Source: an uncultured Candidatus Saccharibacteria bacterium
GTDB taxonomy: Bacteria > Patescibacteriota > Minisyncoccia > Phycocordibacterales > UBA9973
Assembly (NCBI GenBank): GCA_964444515.1
Contig: CAYUGY010000001.1
Span: forward strand, 16,945-51,670
Length of the DNA stretch: 34,726 nt
Direction of reading: 5' to 3'
Under the pieces are notes generated by a model. That model searched no databases, was not told the DNA's origin, and saw nothing but the letters and a program-made list of their open reading frames with translations. The position numbers and the translations under genes were made by a program. Each line of letters starts with the position of its first letter. The stretch's first letter is position 1. Shown one piece after another: positions 842 to 26,738 of the stretch.

Positions 842-874
842 AAAATAAATCCCGACATTGTCGGGATTTATTTT
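842..874. terminator. Rho-independent terminator after rpmA
   Basis: 15-bp perfect stem aaaataaatcccgac / gtcgggatttatttt with a 3-nt loop. The 3' arm ends in a T-run. Confidence 0.8.
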
Positions 875-943
875 ATTTCGTCAAGCGAGGAACGAATGAA
901 AGTGTTATTGCTTTCATGTCGTCCGAGTCGAAGGCGAAATATA
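874..943. repeat. Intergenic hairpin element, copy A (related to 13601-13696)
   Basis: gcgaggaacgaatgaaagtgttattgctttcatgtcgtccgagtcgaaggcgaaatata aligns at about 80% identity by eye with 13638-13696. Internal hairpin atgaaag/ctttcat (896-917). Outer tatttcg/cgaaata pairing. Confidence 0.55.
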
Positions 944-6554: not shown

Positions 6555-7187
6555 TTATTCAGCGTCAACAGATTCTTCTTTCTTACCTTTCTTTTCCACT
6601 TCAATAGCAGAAAGATCAAGTGGAGCAGATTCTTCTGATTCTTCTTTTTGAGCTGCAACAAGTGCAACAACTTCTTCACCATCAGTGATCATTGTTACGC
6701 CAGCTGGAAGCTTGATATCAGCCACAGTGATTTGAGTGTCCAAATCAACCAAAGTTGAAATATCTACTTCAAGTGTGTGTGGTAAATCTTTTGGAAGGGC
6801 TTCGACTTCAACTTCGTGAAGCACCTTAACCAATGTTCCCAAGTTATTCTTTTCAGCAGGTGCTACACCAACGAATTCAAGTTGGATTGCTACTTCTACT
6901 GGTTTGTTCATATCAACAGCAAGGAAATCAACATGCATAATGTGGCCCTTTACTGGGTGAAATTGTACATCTTGGAAAAGAACGTTTTTCTTTTCACTGT
7001 CATATGAAAGTGCTACTGGAGTACTTTCACCTGCTTCTTTCCATGCTTTTACGAGAATACGAGACTCAATAGCGAGACTCGTAACTTCTGTGTTAGCGCC
7101 ATAGACAACAGCTGGTACCATGCCGTTAGTTCGCAATTGGTCCAACTTGTCTGCCTTACTTCGCTTTGTTGCTGTAATACTTATCAT
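6555..7187 (-). CDS. rplY: 50S ribosomal protein L25 / general stress protein Ctc (long form)
   Basis: R..GMVPAVVYG, FHPVKGHIMHVDF and an acidic C-terminal extension. Length 210 aa. Confidence 0.92.
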   Translation of the reverse strand: MISITATKRSKADKLDQLRTNGMVPAVVYGANTEVTSLAIESRILVKAWKEAGESTPVALSYDSEKKNVLFQDVQFHPVKGHIMHVDFLAVDMNKPVEVAIQLEFVGVAPAEKNNLGTLVKVLHEVEVEALPKDLPHTLEVDISTLVDLDTQITVADIKLPAGVTMITDGEEVVALVAAQKEESEESAPLDLSAIEVEKKGKKEESVDAE

Positions 7188-7268
7188 GGCAATATCTTAA
7201 CACTAAAAAAGATATATATCAATAGTTTATTTTTATATCTTATTTTTTATTAAGGAAATAAGATACTA

Positions 7269-7297
7269 TTGACATAATATATAGTATATGGTATACT
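7269..7297 (+). promoter_or_regulatory. Strong sigma70-type promoter (extended -10), leader copy 1
   Basis: TTGACA (7269-7274), 17-nt spacer, TGgTATACT (7289-7297). The same architecture occurs at 10192-10221 on the minus strand. Confidence 0.65.
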
Positions 7298-7308
7298 ATA
7301 TACAAGTT

Positions 7309-7389
7309 AAGTTCTTTGATATCTTGTTATTTAGTTGGGTGAACAGAGCGGATTTATATCCCTTGTGTCCACCTAATTAAATAAACAAA
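7309..7389 (+). promoter_or_regulatory. Conserved structured 5' leader, copy 1 (candidate cis-regulatory RNA, class unknown)
   Basis: About 85% identical to the reverse complement of 10100-10182. Hairpin 7331-7380 has the P1 helix ttagttgggtg/ccacctaattaa. A compensatory change relative to copy 2 preserves pairing. No U-tract follows. Confidence 0.5.
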
Positions 7390-7704
7390 ATGAAAAATAT
7401 CATATTAATCATTATCTCTCTTGTTGCTTTGGCAACTCAATCTTGCAAAAAAGAAGTATCTCAGGACTATCTTAATAGTCGCTCAAGGATACTTTCCAAG
7501 GAACAACCTAAAGGTTCGTTCAAATATGCATACAAAATTAAGGGGCAAGATTCATCATCAAAAAACCCTAAGACAGGAGAGGTTCGCAGTGAACATGCCC
7601 TCGCAGATGCATTTTCAAACAATGATTATGAGATTGGAAGTGAGGCATCATTTGATCGCACTGACAGCCTCGTAGTTACTGGATACGAAAACAAACAAAA
7701 GTAG
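7390..7704 (+). CDS. Small putative lipoprotein, hypothetical
   Basis: MKNIILIIISLVALATQSC is a signal peptide with a lipobox-like ..ATQS|C. The mature part is hydrophilic. Length 104 aa. Confidence 0.6.
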   Translation: MKNIILIIISLVALATQSCKKEVSQDYLNSRSRILSKEQPKGSFKYAYKIKGQDSSSKNPKTGEVRSEHALADAFSNNDYEIGSEASFDRTDSLVVTGYENKQK

Positions 7705-7711
7705 CACTCAA

Positions 7712-7740
7712 AAAGCCTTGTATTTTATATACAAGGCTTT
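7712..7740. terminator. Bidirectional terminator between convergent genes
   Basis: aaagccttgta ttttata tacaaggcttt is an 11-bp stem. Confidence 0.75.
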
Positions 7741-7746
7741 CTTTAT

Positions 7747-9444
7747 TTATGACCCGTGAACCATATCGTGCTTTTCGAGAATGATATGTGAGGACATATA
7801 TTCTTTGGTAGTACCAACCTTCTTGTTCGGATTGAAAATATTTTCTGGATCAAATAATTCTTTTGTTTGTTTGAACAGATTCAAAATCTCAGGAGAAAAG
7901 ATTTTTCCGAGGTATGGAGTACGGACCAGACCGTCGTTGTGTTCAGCGGTAATCGTTCCATTGAACTCCTTGACCAAATCATAGACCTTTTCAGATAACT
8001 CCATAATCACCTCTTTGGTGTGTGTATCAGTGAAATCCATCAATGGAATAATATGGAAGTTTCCATTTCCTGCATGTCCTGCAATGGTGTAAACCAAGTT
8101 ATATTCTTTCAAAAGCGCGTTCAATCGAGGAAGAAATGCTGGTAAAAATTCTGGCTTGATACACACATCATCAATGAACGGTGCAGTATGCTTGCCTTTG
8201 ACATGTTTGCGGAGCATATTGAAACTCTCGCGTCGCATACGCCAATATTTTTCTCCATCAGCTTTTGACTTGGTTACCCGTGTCTTGAAACCGAATGAGG
8301 CAATTTGCTTTTGAGCATTTCTTGTCGCTCGTTCAACTTCTTGCAAATTGTTCCCGGTAAATTCTGCAATCATGACAAGTTTCGGCACACCGCCAGTTGC
8401 CATCATAAAAGCTTCAGGAATAAATGAAATTCCCATTTTGATAAATTGCCACAATGACATTCGCTTCAAAAAATCCGGCATGAACTTCACTGCCAATTTC
8501 AAACTATAATCATCATAAGATTCGATACTTTCTGGACCAAGTGGAAGAATCGTATCAACCAAATGTCCCAATCGAGAAAGATCATTCATAAATACGACAA
8601 GTAGACGTGATTCTTTGGTCACATCAGTCAGATTGAATGTAATCTCAGTCACGATTCCGAGTGTTCCTTGTGAGCCGACAATCAGTCGACACAAATCAAA
8701 ACTTTCAGTTTCTTTATCATAAATATTCCATAGATAATATCCAGCAGAATTTTTCGATACATTGGGTTTTGCTGCAGTGATCAACATATCGTTGTCATTG
8801 ATTAGTTGCAACAGCTCTTTGTAGAGTTCTGCTTCAACACTGACTTCTGCAACTTTTTGATACAACTCTTTCTTGGTCATTCGCTTGACGGTGTATTCAT
8901 ACCCGTCACGAAAGACCACTTTCAATTCACGAATCCAATCTTCAGTCTTGCCGAATTTGATCGATTTTTCCCCACCACTATTGTTCCCTACCATTCCACC
9001 AACAGCACACAGTTCTTTTGATGCGGTATATGATGGCATTATCAAATTTTCAGCTAGTGTAACTTTTTCAAAGTCTCGGTAGAATGTTCCCGGAAGTACG
9101 GTCGCGTATCCTGTCACTTTGTGACCATACGACATTTCATCAGTCTTTGTAATCTTCCCAATACCATTCATATAACGAGACATATCAAGAATGATTGATT
9201 CATTGATTGAACCACCTGACATACAAGTTCCTGCACAACGTGCAGTGATTGAAAGTGTCGGATCTTCTTTTTTGTGATCATTGACCCATTTGACCAAGAG
9301 ACAAACGTCCGTCCCGTCTTTTGGAAATACAACCACCTTTGGACGAACCACAAAGATACTCGCATCACGAGAATATTTCTCCAACACTTCGTCACTCATT
9401 TCTACATCCCCTCTTATTACTTTTTTCAAATCATCAAAATTCAT
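7747..9444 (-). CDS. FAD-linked oxidase (GlcD / D-lactate dehydrogenase-like, PCMH-type FAD binding)
   Basis: The N-terminal FAD-binding region has VVFPKDGTDVCLLVKW and RCAGTCMSGGS. The C-terminal region has AGHAGNGNFHIIP and TAEHNDG, typical of the family. Length 565 aa. Confidence 0.85.
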   Translation of the reverse strand: MNFDDLKKVIRGDVEMSDEVLEKYSRDASIFVVRPKVVVFPKDGTDVCLLVKWVNDHKKEDPTLSITARCAGTCMSGGSINESIILDMSRYMNGIGKITKTDEMSYGHKVTGYATVLPGTFYRDFEKVTLAENLIMPSYTASKELCAVGGMVGNNSGGEKSIKFGKTEDWIRELKVVFRDGYEYTVKRMTKKELYQKVAEVSVEAELYKELLQLINDNDMLITAAKPNVSKNSAGYYLWNIYDKETESFDLCRLIVGSQGTLGIVTEITFNLTDVTKESRLLVVFMNDLSRLGHLVDTILPLGPESIESYDDYSLKLAVKFMPDFLKRMSLWQFIKMGISFIPEAFMMATGGVPKLVMIAEFTGNNLQEVERATRNAQKQIASFGFKTRVTKSKADGEKYWRMRRESFNMLRKHVKGKHTAPFIDDVCIKPEFLPAFLPRLNALLKEYNLVYTIAGHAGNGNFHIIPLMDFTDTHTKEVIMELSEKVYDLVKEFNGTITAEHNDGLVRTPYLGKIFSPEILNLFKQTKELFDPENIFNPNKKVGTTKEYMSSHIILEKHDMVHGS

Positions 9445-9486
9445 AGGTCTATTATAACTTTTCTTCGTAATTTACCCAAAGTGCAG

Positions 9487-9536
9487 AAAATAAAAAACCC
9501 GCACAATGTACGGGCTTTCCGTGCAAAGTGCGGGTT
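9487..9536 (-). terminator. Terminator after the 185-aa membrane protein gene
   Basis: On the minus strand, aacccgcac...gtgcgggtt is a 9-bp stem with an internal acgg/ccgt helix, followed by ttttttatttt. Confidence 0.6.
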
Positions 9537-9541
9537 GTGAT

Positions 9542-10099
9542 TTAAGCAGCAATTTCTTTTTCTTTAAGTAATTCTGACCATTTAGTGAAGAAAATCTTTC
9601 TCACTAAAAATCCAATTATTGTTGCTAACATCAGAGCCCCTAGAGCAGTGAAAAAATTCGCATCAGGGTTAGCAATAATCCAAAAAAACAGCAGTATAAC
9701 ATTAAGAATAATGCTATATCTTACATGAATAATCGCCAGTATCGTAGATACAGTAAACATAACAATGTAAAGATTTAAGAGTACCCATACATACCAATCA
9801 GGTACGTACCCTTCGTAATTCCAACCGAAAATTTCGAGGATTACTAATAGTAATCCTAATGCTACTGTTATGAAATAACCGGTAGTCCATTTTTTCTTAA
9901 GATCAGGTCTTAAGAAAGGTATCTCAATGAGGGAGATTACCAGTCCCATTACAACGCTCATATACATACAAATTTTGAGTATATAAGAAGTGTAATTTTC
10001 CGGAACAATATCTTTAATTTCACTGGACACAACAGTTGCAATGGCAACAAAAATCATGGATACAATCCAGATTTGGAAATAATTGATTACTTTTTTCAT
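9542..10099 (-). CDS. Polytopic membrane protein (about 5-6 TM), hypothetical
   Basis: ORF track. Hydrophobic throughout. Visibly more AT-rich than neighbours. No family recognised; PnuC was considered but the sequence does not convincingly resemble it. Confidence 0.65.
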   Translation of the reverse strand: MKKVINYFQIWIVSMIFVAIATVVSSEIKDIVPENYTSYILKICMYMSVVMGLVISLIEIPFLRPDLKKKWTTGYFITVALGLLLVILEIFGWNYEGYVPDWYVWVLLNLYIVMFTVSTILAIIHVRYSIILNVILLFFWIIANPDANFFTALGALMLATIIGFLVRKIFFTKWSELLKEKEIAA

Positions 10100-10182
10100 T
10101 TTGTTTTATATTAATTGAGTGGACACAGAGGACAGCATCCGCTCTGTTCACTCAACTAAATAACAACATATCAAAGAACTTT
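10100..10182 (-). promoter_or_regulatory. Conserved structured 5' leader, copy 2
   Basis: The reverse complement reads aagttctttgatatgttgttatttagttgagtgaacagagcggatgctgtcctctgtgtccactcaattaatataaaacaaa followed by ATG. Hairpin spans 10111-10159. Confidence 0.5.
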
Positions 10183-10191
10183 ACTATTGAT

Positions 10192-10221
10192 AGTATACCA
10201 TATAATATACCTATTTGTCAA
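10192..10221 (-). promoter_or_regulatory. Promoter of leader copy 2
   Basis: Minus strand: TTGACA (10221-10216), 18-nt spacer, TGgTATACT (-10 at 10197-10192). Confidence 0.6.
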
Positions 10222-10250
10222 TAGGCGGAACCTTTCAGGTTCCGCCTATT
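10220..10250. terminator. GC-rich perfect palindrome (terminator of the upstream secreted-protein gene), abutting the -35 box
   Basis: aataggcggaacct ttc aggttccgcctatt is a 14-bp perfect stem. Confidence 0.7.
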
Positions 10251-10285
10251 GATTTTACCTATTTTAAGCTTCTATTTAAAGCTTT

Positions 10286-10792
10286 TTAGAGCATTGTTGC
10301 TTCTGACATACTGTTTGGAGCTGTCTCTTCCTTGCCTGTTCCACCACAAGCCTTGATGTCAGCCTTGAATGTATCCCAAGCTGTTTTACGAACTGACTTG
10401 AGTGCTGTACGAGCAGATTTTGAAGCTGTCTCAAATGCCTGACGAGTAGTTTTGCGAGCAGTGTTTCGTTCGTTTGACGTTGTCTTTGCCCATGCATCTT
10501 TCAAACCAGTTGTACGCGCAGTCAAAGCAGTTTTCATTGAAGTATTGAATGTGTCGAGTCCAGCAATCAAAGCATTTTCACGCTTTTCCACTGCTGTTCC
10601 AGCACAAACTGGATCTGCTACGTTTTTCTTGTTTGACATTTTTTCTTTCAAATCACGCATGAGCCCACCCTTGTCTGAATGTTCAACTTCACCTGTTGAT
10701 GAAGCCGATGTTGTTGTAACCATTTCTTCTGCAAAAGCAACGTTACAGAGAATCAAAGAAAGTGCGAATGTTGATACGAGAAATTTTTTCAT
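10286..10792 (-). CDS. Secreted helical protein, hypothetical
   Basis: From ATG 10792, MKKFLVSTFALSLILCNVAFA is a signal peptide. It is followed by T/A/K/R-rich helical repeats (..TALTARTTGLKDAWAKTT..ARKTTRQAFETASKSARTALKSVRKTAWDTFK..). Confidence 0.6.
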   Translation of the reverse strand: MKKFLVSTFALSLILCNVAFAEEMVTTTSASSTGEVEHSDKGGLMRDLKEKMSNKKNVADPVCAGTAVEKRENALIAGLDTFNTSMKTALTARTTGLKDAWAKTTSNERNTARKTTRQAFETASKSARTALKSVRKTAWDTFKADIKACGGTGKEETAPNSMSEATML

Positions 10793-13600: not shown

Positions 13601-13696
13601 TATTTCGTCGAGCATACTCCAAGAGTCATTCCGGTGAATGAGGAGCGAGTGAAAGTGTCATTACTTTCACATTGTCCGAGTCGAGGACGAAATATA
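13601..13696. repeat. Intergenic hairpin element, copy B (related to 874-943)
   Basis: Outer stem tatttcgtc (13601-09) / gacgaaata (13686-94). Inner hairpins are tcattc-cggt-gaatga and gtgaaagt-gtcatt-actttcac (13649-13670). The 3' 60 nt align with copy A. Confidence 0.55.
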
Positions 13697-13784
13697 AAAT
13701 ATCTTTTTGTGTGTTGATATTTTTTATTCGCGCGAATTAGGAAATAAAAAAACCACTTCTTTATGAAGAGGTTTTTAACCCAGA

Positions 13785-19037: not shown

Positions 19038-19394
19038 TTATGCAGCCAACTGATGCTCAGTTTCTAAACCAAGTTTCTCTTCGAGTTCTTGAACTTGTGC
19101 TTCAAGTTTTACTCTTTTCACCGGGTCAGTTTCTGAAATCAATTGCATATTGATAGTATCAAGCTTTTCTTGTGTCAACATTTCTTCAGAAAGACTTGTA
19201 ACATCACCGTTTTCAAAAATTTCTTGTTCTATATGACCTTCTTTGTTTATAACTTTGTGTGACAATTCTTGACTTGTTCCGTTTTGATTTAAATCAATTG
19301 GACTATTTTCAGAAGCAGCTTGAGGTTTTTCTTGAGATGAACCTGTTTGCCCTGAAATCTTCTTAAATGTGTTTTCTAGAAAATTAAATTTCAT
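19038..19394 (-). CDS. 118-aa acidic hypothetical protein
   Basis: ORF track. Low-complexity E/Q/S-rich sequence with a C-terminal helix. Confidence 0.45.
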   Translation of the reverse strand: MKFNFLENTFKKISGQTGSSQEKPQAASENSPIDLNQNGTSQELSHKVINKEGHIEQEIFENGDVTSLSEEMLTQEKLDTINMQLISETDPVKRVKLEAQVQELEEKLGLETEHQLAA

Positions 19395-19405
19395 ATTTTT
19401 TTATA

Positions 19406-19483
19406 TTAGTTAGTAATACTATTTCCTGTCTTGATAACATGATCAACAAGCGTATAGGTGTACCCCATTTCATTACGATACCA
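19406..19483 (-). pseudogene. Duplicated 3'-terminal fragment of gap (last 25 codons plus stop)
   Basis: Translates to WYRNEMGYTYTLVDHVIKTGNSITN*, compared with the real C-terminus WYDNEMGYTYTLVDHVIKTGRTINN* (19674-19751). A 21-nt core is identical (19455-19475 = 19723-19743). No upstream gap sequence is attached. Confidence 0.75.
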
Positions 19484-19659: not shown

Positions 19660-19673
19660 AATACTTTTTTTAG

Positions 19674-20729
19674 TTAATTATTAATCGTTCGTCCAGTTTT
19701 GATCACATGATCGACAAGTGTGTAGGTGTACCCCATTTCATTATCGTACCATGCGAGGACTTTGACAAGGTTTCCTCCTACCACACGAGTCATTTCCAAA
19801 TCAGCAATAGAAGCATGACTATTTCCCAAAATATCACTTGAAACCAATGGTTCTTCGGTAACTGCAAAAATTCCCTTCCATTTGTCTTGCAAAGAAGCTT
19901 TTTTGAGTACTTCATTTACTTCTTCTCCTGTCGTGTTTTTCTTTGAGATGAATGTCACGTCGACGATTGAACCTGCTGGTACTGGTACACGGAGTGAAAT
20001 ACCATCAAAGAGTCCTTCGAGTTTTGGATAGGCTTTGGTCACGGCGATTGCAGCACCCGTTGAAGAAGGCACGATATTTTGCGCAGCAGCACGGCCTTCA
20101 CGCAAATCTTTCTTACTTGGTCCATCGACAAGTGCTTGAGTACCAGTGTATGCGTGTGTTGTCGAAAGCACTGCTTTTTCTACCCCAAAGACTTCGTCGA
20201 GAATTCCAATCAGTGGCGATGCGCAGTTTGTTGTACAAGAAGCGTTTGAAGTGATATCACAGGTACCGAACTTTTCTTCGTTAACTCCAAGTAGAATTGT
20301 TTCTCCGTTAACAGAACCGTCCCCTTTACTTGGCGCAGAAATCACTACTTTTTTTGCACCTTGATCGATGTGGAATTTTGCTTTTTCAAATGCAGTGAAG
20401 AGTCCGGTTGATTCGACAACAACATCAATATTCAATTCTTTCCATGGAAGTTTTGTAGTATCTTTTTCTCCAATAAATTTCACCACCTTTCCATCGATAC
20501 TAATTCCACCATCTACTACTTTGACTTCATGAGGAAATTGTTTGTACACCGTATCGTATTTCAACAGATATGCGAGTGATTCGAGCGTCCCTAAATCATT
20601 CACTGCAACAATTTCAATTTCTGGTCTATTCCAGGCAATTTTTAAAAACGCACGACCGATACGACCAAATCCATTAATAGCTACGCGAACCTTTTTGTCT
20701 TTTGATCCAAATAATTTCATATGAATCAA
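19674..20729 (-). CDS. gap: Glyceraldehyde-3-phosphate dehydrogenase
   Basis: VAINGFGRIGR, SNASCTTNC (catalytic Cys) and WYDNEMGY. The TTG at 20729 has a GGTGAG Shine-Dalgarno 8 nt upstream. ATG at 20720 is the alternative start. Confidence 0.95.
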   Translation of the reverse strand: MIHMKLFGSKDKKVRVAINGFGRIGRAFLKIAWNRPEIEIVAVNDLGTLESLAYLLKYDTVYKQFPHEVKVVDGGISIDGKVVKFIGEKDTTKLPWKELNIDVVVESTGLFTAFEKAKFHIDQGAKKVVISAPSKGDGSVNGETILLGVNEEKFGTCDITSNASCTTNCASPLIGILDEVFGVEKAVLSTTHAYTGTQALVDGPSKKDLREGRAAAQNIVPSSTGAAIAVTKAYPKLEGLFDGISLRVPVPAGSIVDVTFISKKNTTGEEVNEVLKKASLQDKWKGIFAVTEEPLVSSDILGNSHASIADLEMTRVVGGNLVKVLAWYDNEMGYTYTLVDHVIKTGRTINN

Positions 20730-23512: not shown

Positions 23513-23584
23513 GGCTCTATCGTCTATCGGTTAGGACACATCCTTCTCAAGGATGGAAGCAGGGTTCGATTCCCTGTAGAGTCA
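23513..23584 (+). tRNA. tRNA-Glu (anticodon CUC)
   Basis: 72-nt cloverleaf: acceptor ggctcta/tagagtc, D arm gtct..ggac, anticodon arm catcc-TTCTCAA-ggatg, T arm caggg-ttcgatt-ccctg, discriminator A. No encoded CCA. Confidence 0.9.
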
Positions 23585-23590
23585 CAATAT

Positions 23591-23616
23591 AAAAAAGCCT
23601 TCGTTGGGGCTTTTTT
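23591..23616 (+). terminator. Terminator after tRNA-Glu
   Basis: aaaaaagcc ttcgttgg ggctttttt. Confidence 0.6.
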
Positions 23617-23731
23617 ATATTGTAACGAAAAGAAAGCAAAACACTTTGCTTTCGTCAGGAATCGAAAGATTTTTCGGTCTACGAATTTTTGTATCAAAAA
23701 TTTGTCGAAAAATACCTGGCTATGTAGTAGC

Positions 23732-23754
23732 CGATTCCCTGTAGAGTCACAATA
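23732..23754 (+). repeat. 23-bp perfect direct copy of the tRNA-Glu 3' end (partner 23567-23589)
   Basis: cgattccctgtagagtcacaata occurs twice, 165 bp apart. Similarity continues with one indel into the following A-run and terminator start. Confidence 0.9.
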
Positions 23755-23755
23755 A

Positions 23756-23783
23756 AAAAGACCCTTTATTTGGAGGGTCTTTT
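23756..23783. terminator. Hairpin shared by the tRNA-end copy (+) and the histidine phosphatase gene (-)
   Basis: aaaagaccct ttatttgg agggtctttt is a 10-bp stem. Confidence 0.65.
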
Positions 23784-23784
23784 A

Positions 23785-24354
23785 CTAAAAAGTAAACTTA
23801 TGAACTGATCCGTTGTGTGGTGGTTTTTCCAAAAATTCTTGATTTTTTTCTACTTTATAGAGACAGCGGATGACTCCGGCATGAGTAACGACGATAATCT
23901 TTTTACCATAATATTTATATTTCATATCATCGATAAAGGAATAGAGTCGTTCTTTAACTGACCTAAATGAATCACCATGATATTTAGAAAAATCATAATT
24001 GTCTTGGGACGCATATTCTTTTTCATACTGATTCGAATAGAGCTCAGCTATTTGTGTCCATGTTTTTCCTCCAAAATCACCAAAACTAACTTCCGTAATA
24101 CGCTTGTCTGGTTTTAAAAACACAGGAGTATCTAAACTTTTATGGTACATAATGACGGCTGTTTCTTCTGTTCTTTTACAAGGAGAAGAGATAATTGCAC
24201 AGATACCTCGAGGTATCTTTTTAGCAGCTTCTTTTGCTTGAAGCTTACCTTCATCATTTAATGATTCATCTAAGCCATCAGGCAATAGACCTTTAGTATT
24301 TCTCGAGGTTTCACCGTGTCGAACAAAATAGATTATTACTTCTTTTCTTACCAT
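23785..24354 (-). CDS. Histidine phosphatase family protein (phosphoglycerate mutase-like)
   Basis: From ATG 24354, MVRKEVIIYFVRHGETSRN carries the RHGE motif. The second catalytic His lies in VVTHAGVIR. The longer ORF (to 24462) runs through a GC-rich palindrome and promoter-like sequence. Confidence 0.85.
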   Translation of the reverse strand: MVRKEVIIYFVRHGETSRNTKGLLPDGLDESLNDEGKLQAKEAAKKIPRGICAIISSPCKRTEETAVIMYHKSLDTPVFLKPDKRITEVSFGDFGGKTWTQIAELYSNQYEKEYASQDNYDFSKYHGDSFRSVKERLYSFIDDMKYKYYGKKIIVVTHAGVIRCLYKVEKNQEFLEKPPHNGSVHKFTF

Positions 24355-24401
24355 TTTCTTTTTTATTAATTCCGAATTTATATTACATTTATTATACAGA
24401 A

Positions 24402-24432
24402 AGTCAACAGAGCGCGACCGAAGGTCGCGCGG
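24402..24432. repeat. GC-rich palindrome with GTCAACAG flank
   Basis: agtcaacagaGCGCGACCgaaGGTCGCGCgg is an 8-bp GC stem (24412-19 / 24423-30) followed by ttttt on the plus strand. It is related to 26704-26738. Confidence 0.7.
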
Positions 24433-26653: not shown

Positions 26654-26703
26654 ACTTTAAAGGTATTATTCTCCTCAAAAACAATACTATTTATATAATA
26701 AAT

Positions 26704-26738
26704 AGTCAATAGAGCGCGACCTCCGGTCGCGCTCTATT
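26704..26738. repeat. GC-rich palindrome with GTCAATAG flank (likely ftsI terminator)
   Basis: agtcAATAGAGCGCGACCtccGGTCGCGCTCTATT is a 14-bp perfect stem whose core GCGCGACC/GGTCGCGC is identical to 24412-24430. Confidence 0.7.

Follow-up and report, generated by a model that had tools for sequence, protein, structure and literature searches.

Why do two unrelated genes of an uncultured Candidatus Saccharibacteria bacterium begin with the same promoter and the same untranslated leader, and what might that leader do? To our knowledge, almost nothing is known of gene regulation in Patescibacteria. The question arose from a reading of 34,726 nt of contig CAYUGY010000001.1 (the window, i.e. the whole stretch of DNA that was analysed), in which a promoter and structured leader were described as duplicated in inverted orientation and put forward as a candidate riboswitch or cis-regulatory RNA.

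The duplication itself was confirmed. The two units face inward, copy 1 at 7269-7392 (+) and copy 2 at 10221-10097 (−), and each comprises, in this order, −35 TTGACA, a 17-18-nt spacer, the extended −10 TGgTATACT, ~86 nt of non-coding sequence and the ATG. In window coordinates, the features of the locus are:

7269..7297, plus strand: copy 1 promoter, −35 TTGACA at 7269-7274, 17-nt spacer, extended −10 TGgTATACT ending at 7297
~7304, plus strand: copy 1 transcription start, predicted only
7304..7389, plus strand: copy 1 leader (5′ UTR), ~86 nt, without Shine–Dalgarno sequence, an A-rich 11-nt spacer preceding the ATG
7309..7320, plus strand: copy 1 5′ leader element AAGTTCTTTGAT
7324-7388, plus strand: AU-rich basal extension of the copy 1 hairpin
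7333..7378, plus strand: copy 1 hairpin, 21-nt arms, 4-nt loop, three 1 × 1 mismatches
7390..7704, plus strand: gene of a 104-aa putative lipoprotein behind copy 1, 51% identical to a 108-aa orthologue in locus L001
7712-7740: terminator after the 104-aa lipoprotein gene
7747..9444, minus strand: FAD-linked oxidase gene between the cassettes, with its own −10 TATAAT 6 nt before the ATG, not under the leader
9520-9492: terminator after the 185-aa gene
9542..10099, minus strand: gene of a 185-aa polytopic membrane protein behind copy 2, monocistronic
10100..10185, minus strand: copy 2 leader, ~86 nt (start predicted), 5′ element AAGTTCTTTGAT at 10181-10170
10113..10157, minus strand: copy 2 hairpin, 21-nt arms, 3-nt loop
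10192..10221, minus strand: copy 2 promoter, −35 TTGACA at 10221-10216, 18-nt spacer, extended −10 TGgTATACT ending at 10192
~10217-10252: terminator hairpin of the upstream 168-aa gene, running into the copy 2 −35 box

As inverted repeats the copies flank a 2.8-kb segment, and the longest ungapped inverted repeat between them extends over 49 nt at 94% identity (7305-7353 / 10137-10185). The 29-nt stretch AAGTTCTTTGATATSTTGTTATTTAGTTG occurs exactly twice, compared with 0.00 occurrences expected from shuffles. Both promoters match the consensus at 11 of 12 positions and have the TG extension in addition, and they are the two best promoter matches within 7150-10350. Similarity between the copies fades past ATGAAAAA and ends at about codon 3-4.

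The leader is attached to unrelated genes. Over the window and its relatives, five families were found behind it (a 104/108-aa lipoprotein, the 185-aa membrane protein, a 223/231-aa secreted protein, a 106-aa membrane protein and a 118-aa lipoprotein), among which BLASTP detected no similarity; the view that the conserved unit is the non-coding leader with its promoter, and not a duplicated gene, is therefore upheld. Their products have signal peptides, lipoboxes or transmembrane segments. The 104-aa and 185-aa proteins had no Pfam match, and in a search for homologues the 104-aa lipoprotein retrieved nothing but itself. In the terminator scan, terminators close each leader-driven unit. From the terminator at 9520-9492 and the separate oxidase promoter, it follows that copy 2 serves the 185-aa gene alone and that both units are monocistronic; on the same grounds the FAD oxidase was rejected as a member of the copy 2 operon, and with it the guess of a metabolic ligand.

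To compare the leader among genomes, related loci (denoted with the prefix L) were fetched with two markers, the FAD-oxidase protein and, second, the 168-aa gene upstream of copy 2. The assemblies derive from lakes, run SRR12676975 being among the sources. The loci with the element are:

L001/L013/L014: MAG ELA612 (GCA_037130655.1), JBAXSP010000002.1; three copies (A, B and variant C); oxidase 97% identical in amino acids and 88.9% in nucleotides
L012 and L019: Logan SRR21915726; one copy each
L009: Logan SRR12762287; one copy
L020/L021: one C-type copy; marker protein 81% identical

Both window leaders fold into the same hairpin, with minimum free energies of −27.2 kcal/mol (copy 1) and −26.6 kcal/mol (copy 2) and z scores of −4.76 and −4.74, respectively, against dinucleotide shuffles; the ~50-nt hairpin predicted for both copies thus exists and measures 45-46 nt. 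The comparative set, few and closely related, consists of eight distinct hairpin versions from about five related genomes or assemblies. All eight align unambiguously with 21-nt arms and a 3-4-nt loop, each gives the same hairpin when folded singly, and RNAalifold recovers it independently. In the type-1 register the stem is 21+21 nt with three 1 × 1 mismatches (A.C, G.G and Y.Y), and this register displaces the perfect distal helix ACAGAG/CUCUGU that had been drawn for copy 2.

The 18 pairs are canonical in every version (144/144 cells), and six of them have changed on both sides. None of 500 shuffles matched the observed paired fraction or covariation score, and pairing falls to 34-50% when the partner strand is slid to other registers. 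The main subtype has G-C, A-U or U-A at pair 6/41 and G-U, G-C or A-U at pair 5/42; the compensatory changes first noticed in the basal helix, G-C to A-U and G-U to G-C, are real. Between positional orthologues every stem substitution preserves pairing, and the loop and mismatch positions vary freely, as had been said of the apical loop (3-4 nt, variable across versions). Four of the six double-change pairs derive from one subtype and probably reflect a single history.

In a second subtype (L001_C and L020) A.C has become A-U and G.G has become G-C, i.e. two of the three mismatches are paired, and it is retained between L001 and the more distant L020 with two pair-preserving changes. Since these mismatches can be paired, the apparently invariant internal core is not required. 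The internal segment GAACAGAGCGGA is indeed invariant inside the window, whereas relatives read GTACAGAGCGGA, GAACAGAGTGGA or TAAGAGAGTAGA; in the same way, the 25-nt 5′ stretch thought to be invariant is so between the window copies only, and relatives show a 10-nt deletion or substitutions. The core AGTTCTTT of the 5′ leader element is kept in seven of eight versions, L001_A having AGTTCATT. All eight versions keep the pyrimidine–pyrimidine mismatch 17/30, and close to the loop there is conservation around GGAU/GUCC.

The strand on which the structure is preserved can also be told. A covariance model built from the hairpins scored 57-71 bits in sense and 24-41 bits in antisense orientation (copy 1, 66.2 versus 27.1; copy 2, 69.8 versus 32.4), the sense strand scoring higher because of frequent G-U pairs, and sense-strand folds are more stable than antisense ones. 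At 37°C the hairpin has a free energy of −16 to −24 kcal/mol, and the value remains below zero at 70°C. Taken together, the 144 canonical cells, the six double-change pairs and the G-U pairs that favour the sense strand lead us to conclude that the hairpin is a selected RNA structure, kept intact on the sense strand through compensatory and wobble changes; on this point the relatives bear out what had been read from two copies. Leaders of different genomes are 77% identical overall, no more than four-fold degenerate sites are (60-82%), thus the case for selection rests on the pattern of change and not on conservation.

The same pattern bears on whether the element is recognized as DNA, either as the operator palindrome of a dimeric repressor or as a recombination site for cassette swapping or inversion. 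Such a role would suit inverted repeats that enclose a 2.8-kb segment, a gene behind the leader that differs between strains with 97-98% identical oxidase proteins, and a cassette that is absent in L010 and L022. However, a single genome carries symmetric compensatory changes, with G/C in copy 1 where copy 2 has A/T, and the presence of two such variants side by side favours base pairing over recognition of DNA half-sites by a protein; moreover, a G-T wobble is present on one strand only, no genome examined has the segment in the other orientation, and the GTTRRRY-like and RYYYAAC-like ends of the element stand in the opposite order to those of an integron attC site. The Pfam scan, which covered 38 window ORFs (all but the four at the right-hand end), found no recombinase, integrase or transposase. 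We consider a DNA-level function very unlikely. Two specific forms of it were rejected, an invertible-promoter or cassette-inversion switch (no recombinase among the 38 ORFs, and one orientation of the inter-repeat segment in the window, L012, L009 and L013) and an integron attC site (core-like ends reversed, GTTGGGT ... CCTAAT, and no integrase in the scanned window ORFs).

The cassette can be described as terminator, promoter, leader, small envelope gene and terminator, and in strains with near-identical flanking genes it is present, absent or provided with a different gene. In L009 and L019 the leader is almost that of copy 2, yet a different gene follows from about codon 5. As a side observation, the site between the FAD oxidase and the 168-aa secreted-protein gene proved to be a cassette slot that varies between strains, its flanking genes being nearly identical. 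It contains the 185-aa membrane protein, the 223/231-aa secreted protein or the 118-aa lipoprotein gene, and in L010 and L022 it is empty, with a terminator only and the cassette wholly absent. Its coordinates are:

window 9445-10260: variable slot
L009 540-1570: variable slot
L013 9300-10000: variable slot
L019 6510-7400: variable slot
L020 700-992: variable slot
L022 830-900: variable slot
L010 7508-7597: variable slot

At L022 893-925 the ENA contig k141_1212559 terminates in the Illumina adapter AGATCGGAAGAGCGTCGTGTAGGGAAAGAGTGT, an assembly artefact in the public record. In some strains, large proteins with Por_Secre_tail (PF18962, the type IX secretion sorting domain) are encoded between the oxidase and L25 genes (L009 3305-5059; L013 12272-14005; L015 775-2484); they are absent in the window and unexpected for a Patescibacteria-like genome.

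Each genome has two or three copies of the element, each before a different gene, and the motif is confined to one FAD-oxidase locus in a genus-level clade. An oxidase-protein search of genome contigs gave five loci, with the motif in L001 alone. It is absent at L010 and L011 (oxidase 79-80% identical), where the equivalent genes have plain AU-rich leaders of 20-30 nt, and at L022 and the more distant Paceibacterota/‘Saccharibacteria’ loci L002-L005; hence it is missing at ≤80% protein identity. Run with filters off on the window and all loci (~168 kb), the covariance model found no copy away from the FAD-oxidase locus, and every copy follows the same promoter in gene orientation. No further copy was found in ~10 kb beyond the right window edge, and a look-up with the gene at the left window edge gave no match. 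The exact core pattern ACAGAGNGGA..CCNNTGTGTCCAC had zero matches in viral contigs, and three matches to it in JGI metagenomes lie in GC-rich coding sequence and were dismissed as chance matches. A REP or MITE repeat was rejected as well, the copies occurring at the oxidase locus only and always behind the same promoter.

Within the window the paralogous copies are 86% identical, compared with 77% and 70% for positional orthologues; moreover, the copy 2 promoter resembles its positional orthologue L001_C, whereas the copy 2 leader resembles copy 1. From this mixed resemblance, and from paralogues being closer than orthologues, we infer that gene conversion or cassette replacement homogenised the copies. 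The concern that the motif might be unique to this contig, or a recent local duplication, is thus answered in part: it is present and covarying in other genomes, but it is limited to one locus of one genus-level group, and copies within a genome are closer to each other than to their positional orthologues.

These data could also be read as a hairpin without a function of its own, namely a palindromic insertion that hitch-hikes on promoter duplication and owes its similarity to gene conversion. The narrow distribution, the closer resemblance of paralogues and an overall leader identity not above neutral sites would all fit. At the four-fold-site identity observed, however, neutral decay should break pairs, and none of the 144 cells is broken; the loop and mismatch positions do change, and subtype 2 was kept between L001 and L020 through pair-preserving changes. 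We judge this reading to be quite unlikely.

Could the selected hairpin be a riboswitch, i.e. a ligand-binding aptamer that controls translation, as originally suggested? At the gathering threshold, Rfam 15 matched only two tRNAs in the whole window, and on copies 1 and 2 at E up to 10 the best overlapping matches had 12-19 bits (E 0.28 to ~10), far below the cut-offs, in line with the earlier failure to match the element by eye to a set of known riboswitch motifs. A conserved, structured leader with no Rfam match, backed by covariation and with the stem base close to the start codon, is what one might expect of an aptamer. Against it, the element is a single hairpin interrupted by 1 × 1 mismatches only, two of three of which are Watson–Crick pairs in subtype 2, with a 3-4-nt loop free to vary. 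No pseudoknot partner, junction or conserved alternative fold was found; the small hairpin riboswitches and leader motifs of Rfam 15 are likewise short structured elements between promoter and start codon, but the present element has neither pseudoknot, junction nor conserved loop. Moreover, the downstream genes are unrelated, and the element is limited to one locus in a narrow clade. We therefore regard the riboswitch proposal as highly improbable, and on present evidence the element is a lineage-restricted structured 5′ leader stem-loop of putative function, not a new riboswitch class.

Other cis-acting classes were tried and rejected. The hairpin is followed by AAAUAAACAAAAUG or AAUAUAAAACAAAAUG, with no U-tract, and the terminator scan omits it yet lists true terminators nearby, which excludes an intrinsic terminator or attenuator, in agreement with the original prediction. 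An RNA thermometer of the ROSE or fourU type does not fit a hairpin that is stable above 70°C and has no Shine–Dalgarno sequence, with pairing of the AUG at shuffle level. Pairing between the 5′ U-rich segment, with its UUCUUUG element, and the start region was no better than in shuffled 5′ segments in six of seven versions, L001_C being a marginal exception (0.034); thus direct occlusion of the AUG is unsupported. A leader peptide was discarded since the short leader ORFs are broken by the 10-nt deletion of L001_B and by loop indels.

The hairpin could instead be where a trans-acting factor (a double-stranded RNA-binding protein, RNase III or a small RNA) binds or cleaves in a regulated manner. 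Such a factor would co-ordinate the envelope genes that have the element. A helix of 21 bp makes about two turns, the 17/30 pyrimidine mismatch persists in all eight versions, the loop-proximal sequence around GGAU/GUCC is conserved, and the same element precedes two or three genes per genome. On the other hand, no RNA-binding regulator or RNase III was found by Pfam among the 38 window ORFs, nor any transcription factor, and the second subtype loses two of the three mismatches. A site of this kind appears rather unlikely to us. The more elaborate proposal, in which the hairpin would be the recognition site of a dedicated trans-acting regulator (protein, nuclease or small ligand) that decides jointly which envelope proteins are produced, at a recombination-driven locus of strain-variable surface proteins in an ultra-small episymbiont, and would represent a lineage-specific new class of regulatory RNA, is in our opinion improbable.

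What the leader may do has to be seen against the expression signals of this genome. The window is a housekeeping region, with genes for ribosomal proteins, RF-1, glycolysis, the pentose-phosphate pathway and penicillin-binding proteins. A Shine–Dalgarno-like motif precedes only 2 of 42 window genes, and by-eye reading of upstream sequences shows TGnTATAAT 6-11 nt before the ATG of about a dozen operon-first genes. Scarce Shine–Dalgarno motifs and extended −10 boxes close to the ATG indicate mostly leaderless or near-leaderless mRNAs, on which this lineage appears largely to rely. Because most genes look leaderless, a leader of 72-91 nt (the range across versions, with predicted start sites) is exceptional here.

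Our preferred explanation, which we hold to have about an even chance of being right, is that the unit is a ligand-independent, cis-acting and portable expression module composed of a strong promoter and a 5′ stem-loop. Its first part would be the near-consensus sigma-70 promoter with extended −10, and its second part the 72-91-nt leader, the functional core of which would be the stable, imperfect 21-bp RNA hairpin. The module would have spread by copying to two or three sites around the FAD-oxidase locus, with partial homogenisation of the copies, and the gene that it would drive at each site is monocistronic, varies between strains and encodes a small lipoprotein, secreted protein or membrane protein. 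The hairpin is proposed to act in cis on an mRNA lacking a Shine–Dalgarno sequence, with no need of a ligand: it may shield a heavily transcribed message from 5′-end-dependent decay, and, alternatively or in addition, may set the rate of translation initiation on the adjoining A-rich stretch. In a plausible sub-variant, the two-turn helix would be processed by a double-strand-specific nuclease such as RNase III. The predicted position of the hairpin would speak against this explanation, since it begins 18-31 nt downstream of the predicted 5′ end across versions, and the distance from its 3′ end to the start codon is not fixed, varying from 6 to 18 nt.

Comparable arrangements are found elsewhere. 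The E. coli ompA leader has a 5′ UTR stem-loop that acts as a stabiliser. S-layer slpA genes combine a strong promoter with a stabilising stem-loop in the 5′ UTR (PMC10221546). The unit described here shares with Lactobacillus slpA and E. coli ompA a strong promoter, a long leader with a stable stem-loop, an envelope-protein gene and portability between genes. [quoted passage not shown]

In the vsp, vlp and vsa systems of Mycoplasma, expression is switched by site-specific inversion or by repeat-tract slippage, and the signal peptide is shared among the genes. These systems resemble the present locus in their clustered, divergent small lipoprotein or envelope genes with a near-identical upstream region and strain-variable content, but here similarity ends at about codon 3-4. 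No inversion variant or slippage tract was found in the loci compared, and no recombinase in the 38 scanned ORFs. RNase III processing hairpins occur in the leaders of rnc and pnp and at R1.1 of phage T7, and the present hairpin is like them in lying in a leader and in its helix, which is imperfect, makes about two turns and has small internal mismatches; the resemblance is one of shape only.

Amid mRNAs that are apparently leaderless and have no Shine–Dalgarno sequences, the locus thus has an unusually long leader with a compact RNA element backed by covariation. The element accompanies small envelope proteins that differ between near-identical strains, and proteins of this kind are expected at host or phage contact. 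Its main value is as a source of information on the expression signals of Patescibacteria and on their variable envelope-gene cassettes; if the portable high-expression module is real, it would also be a practical part for the emerging genetic tools in these bacteria.

Several other repeats were noticed in the window. A second structured intergenic repeat, unrelated to the promoter–leader unit, is present at 874-943 (+) and 13632-13700 (+), and also at L012 5772-5841. Its consensus is TATTTCGTC-AGCGAGGArCG, a variable inner hairpin and CGTCCGAGTCGArGrCGAAATA, with a predicted energy of ~−30 kcal/mol and compensating changes in the inner hairpin (AUGAAAGUG/CUUUCAU versus UAUGAAUGAG/CUCAUUCAUA); it had no Rfam match at the gathering threshold. 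The 3′ end of the tRNA at 23513-23584, together with a downstream hairpin (23567-23631), is repeated 165 nt on (23732-23796; 65 nt, 74%), and the repeat may be the scar of an integration or what is left of a tRNA. The window opens with an exact 55-nt direct repeat (1-55 and 84-138). Part of a gene may have been duplicated in the case of a 91-nt direct repeat of 78% identity (19393-19483 / 19661-19751): one copy overlaps the GAPDH gene at its 3′ end, and its partner falls in the 279-nt gap that follows. Finally, two similar GC-rich hairpins at gene ends (24387-24430 and 26689-26738; AGTCAAyAGAGCGCGACC..GGTCGCGC) are probably a shared terminator type.
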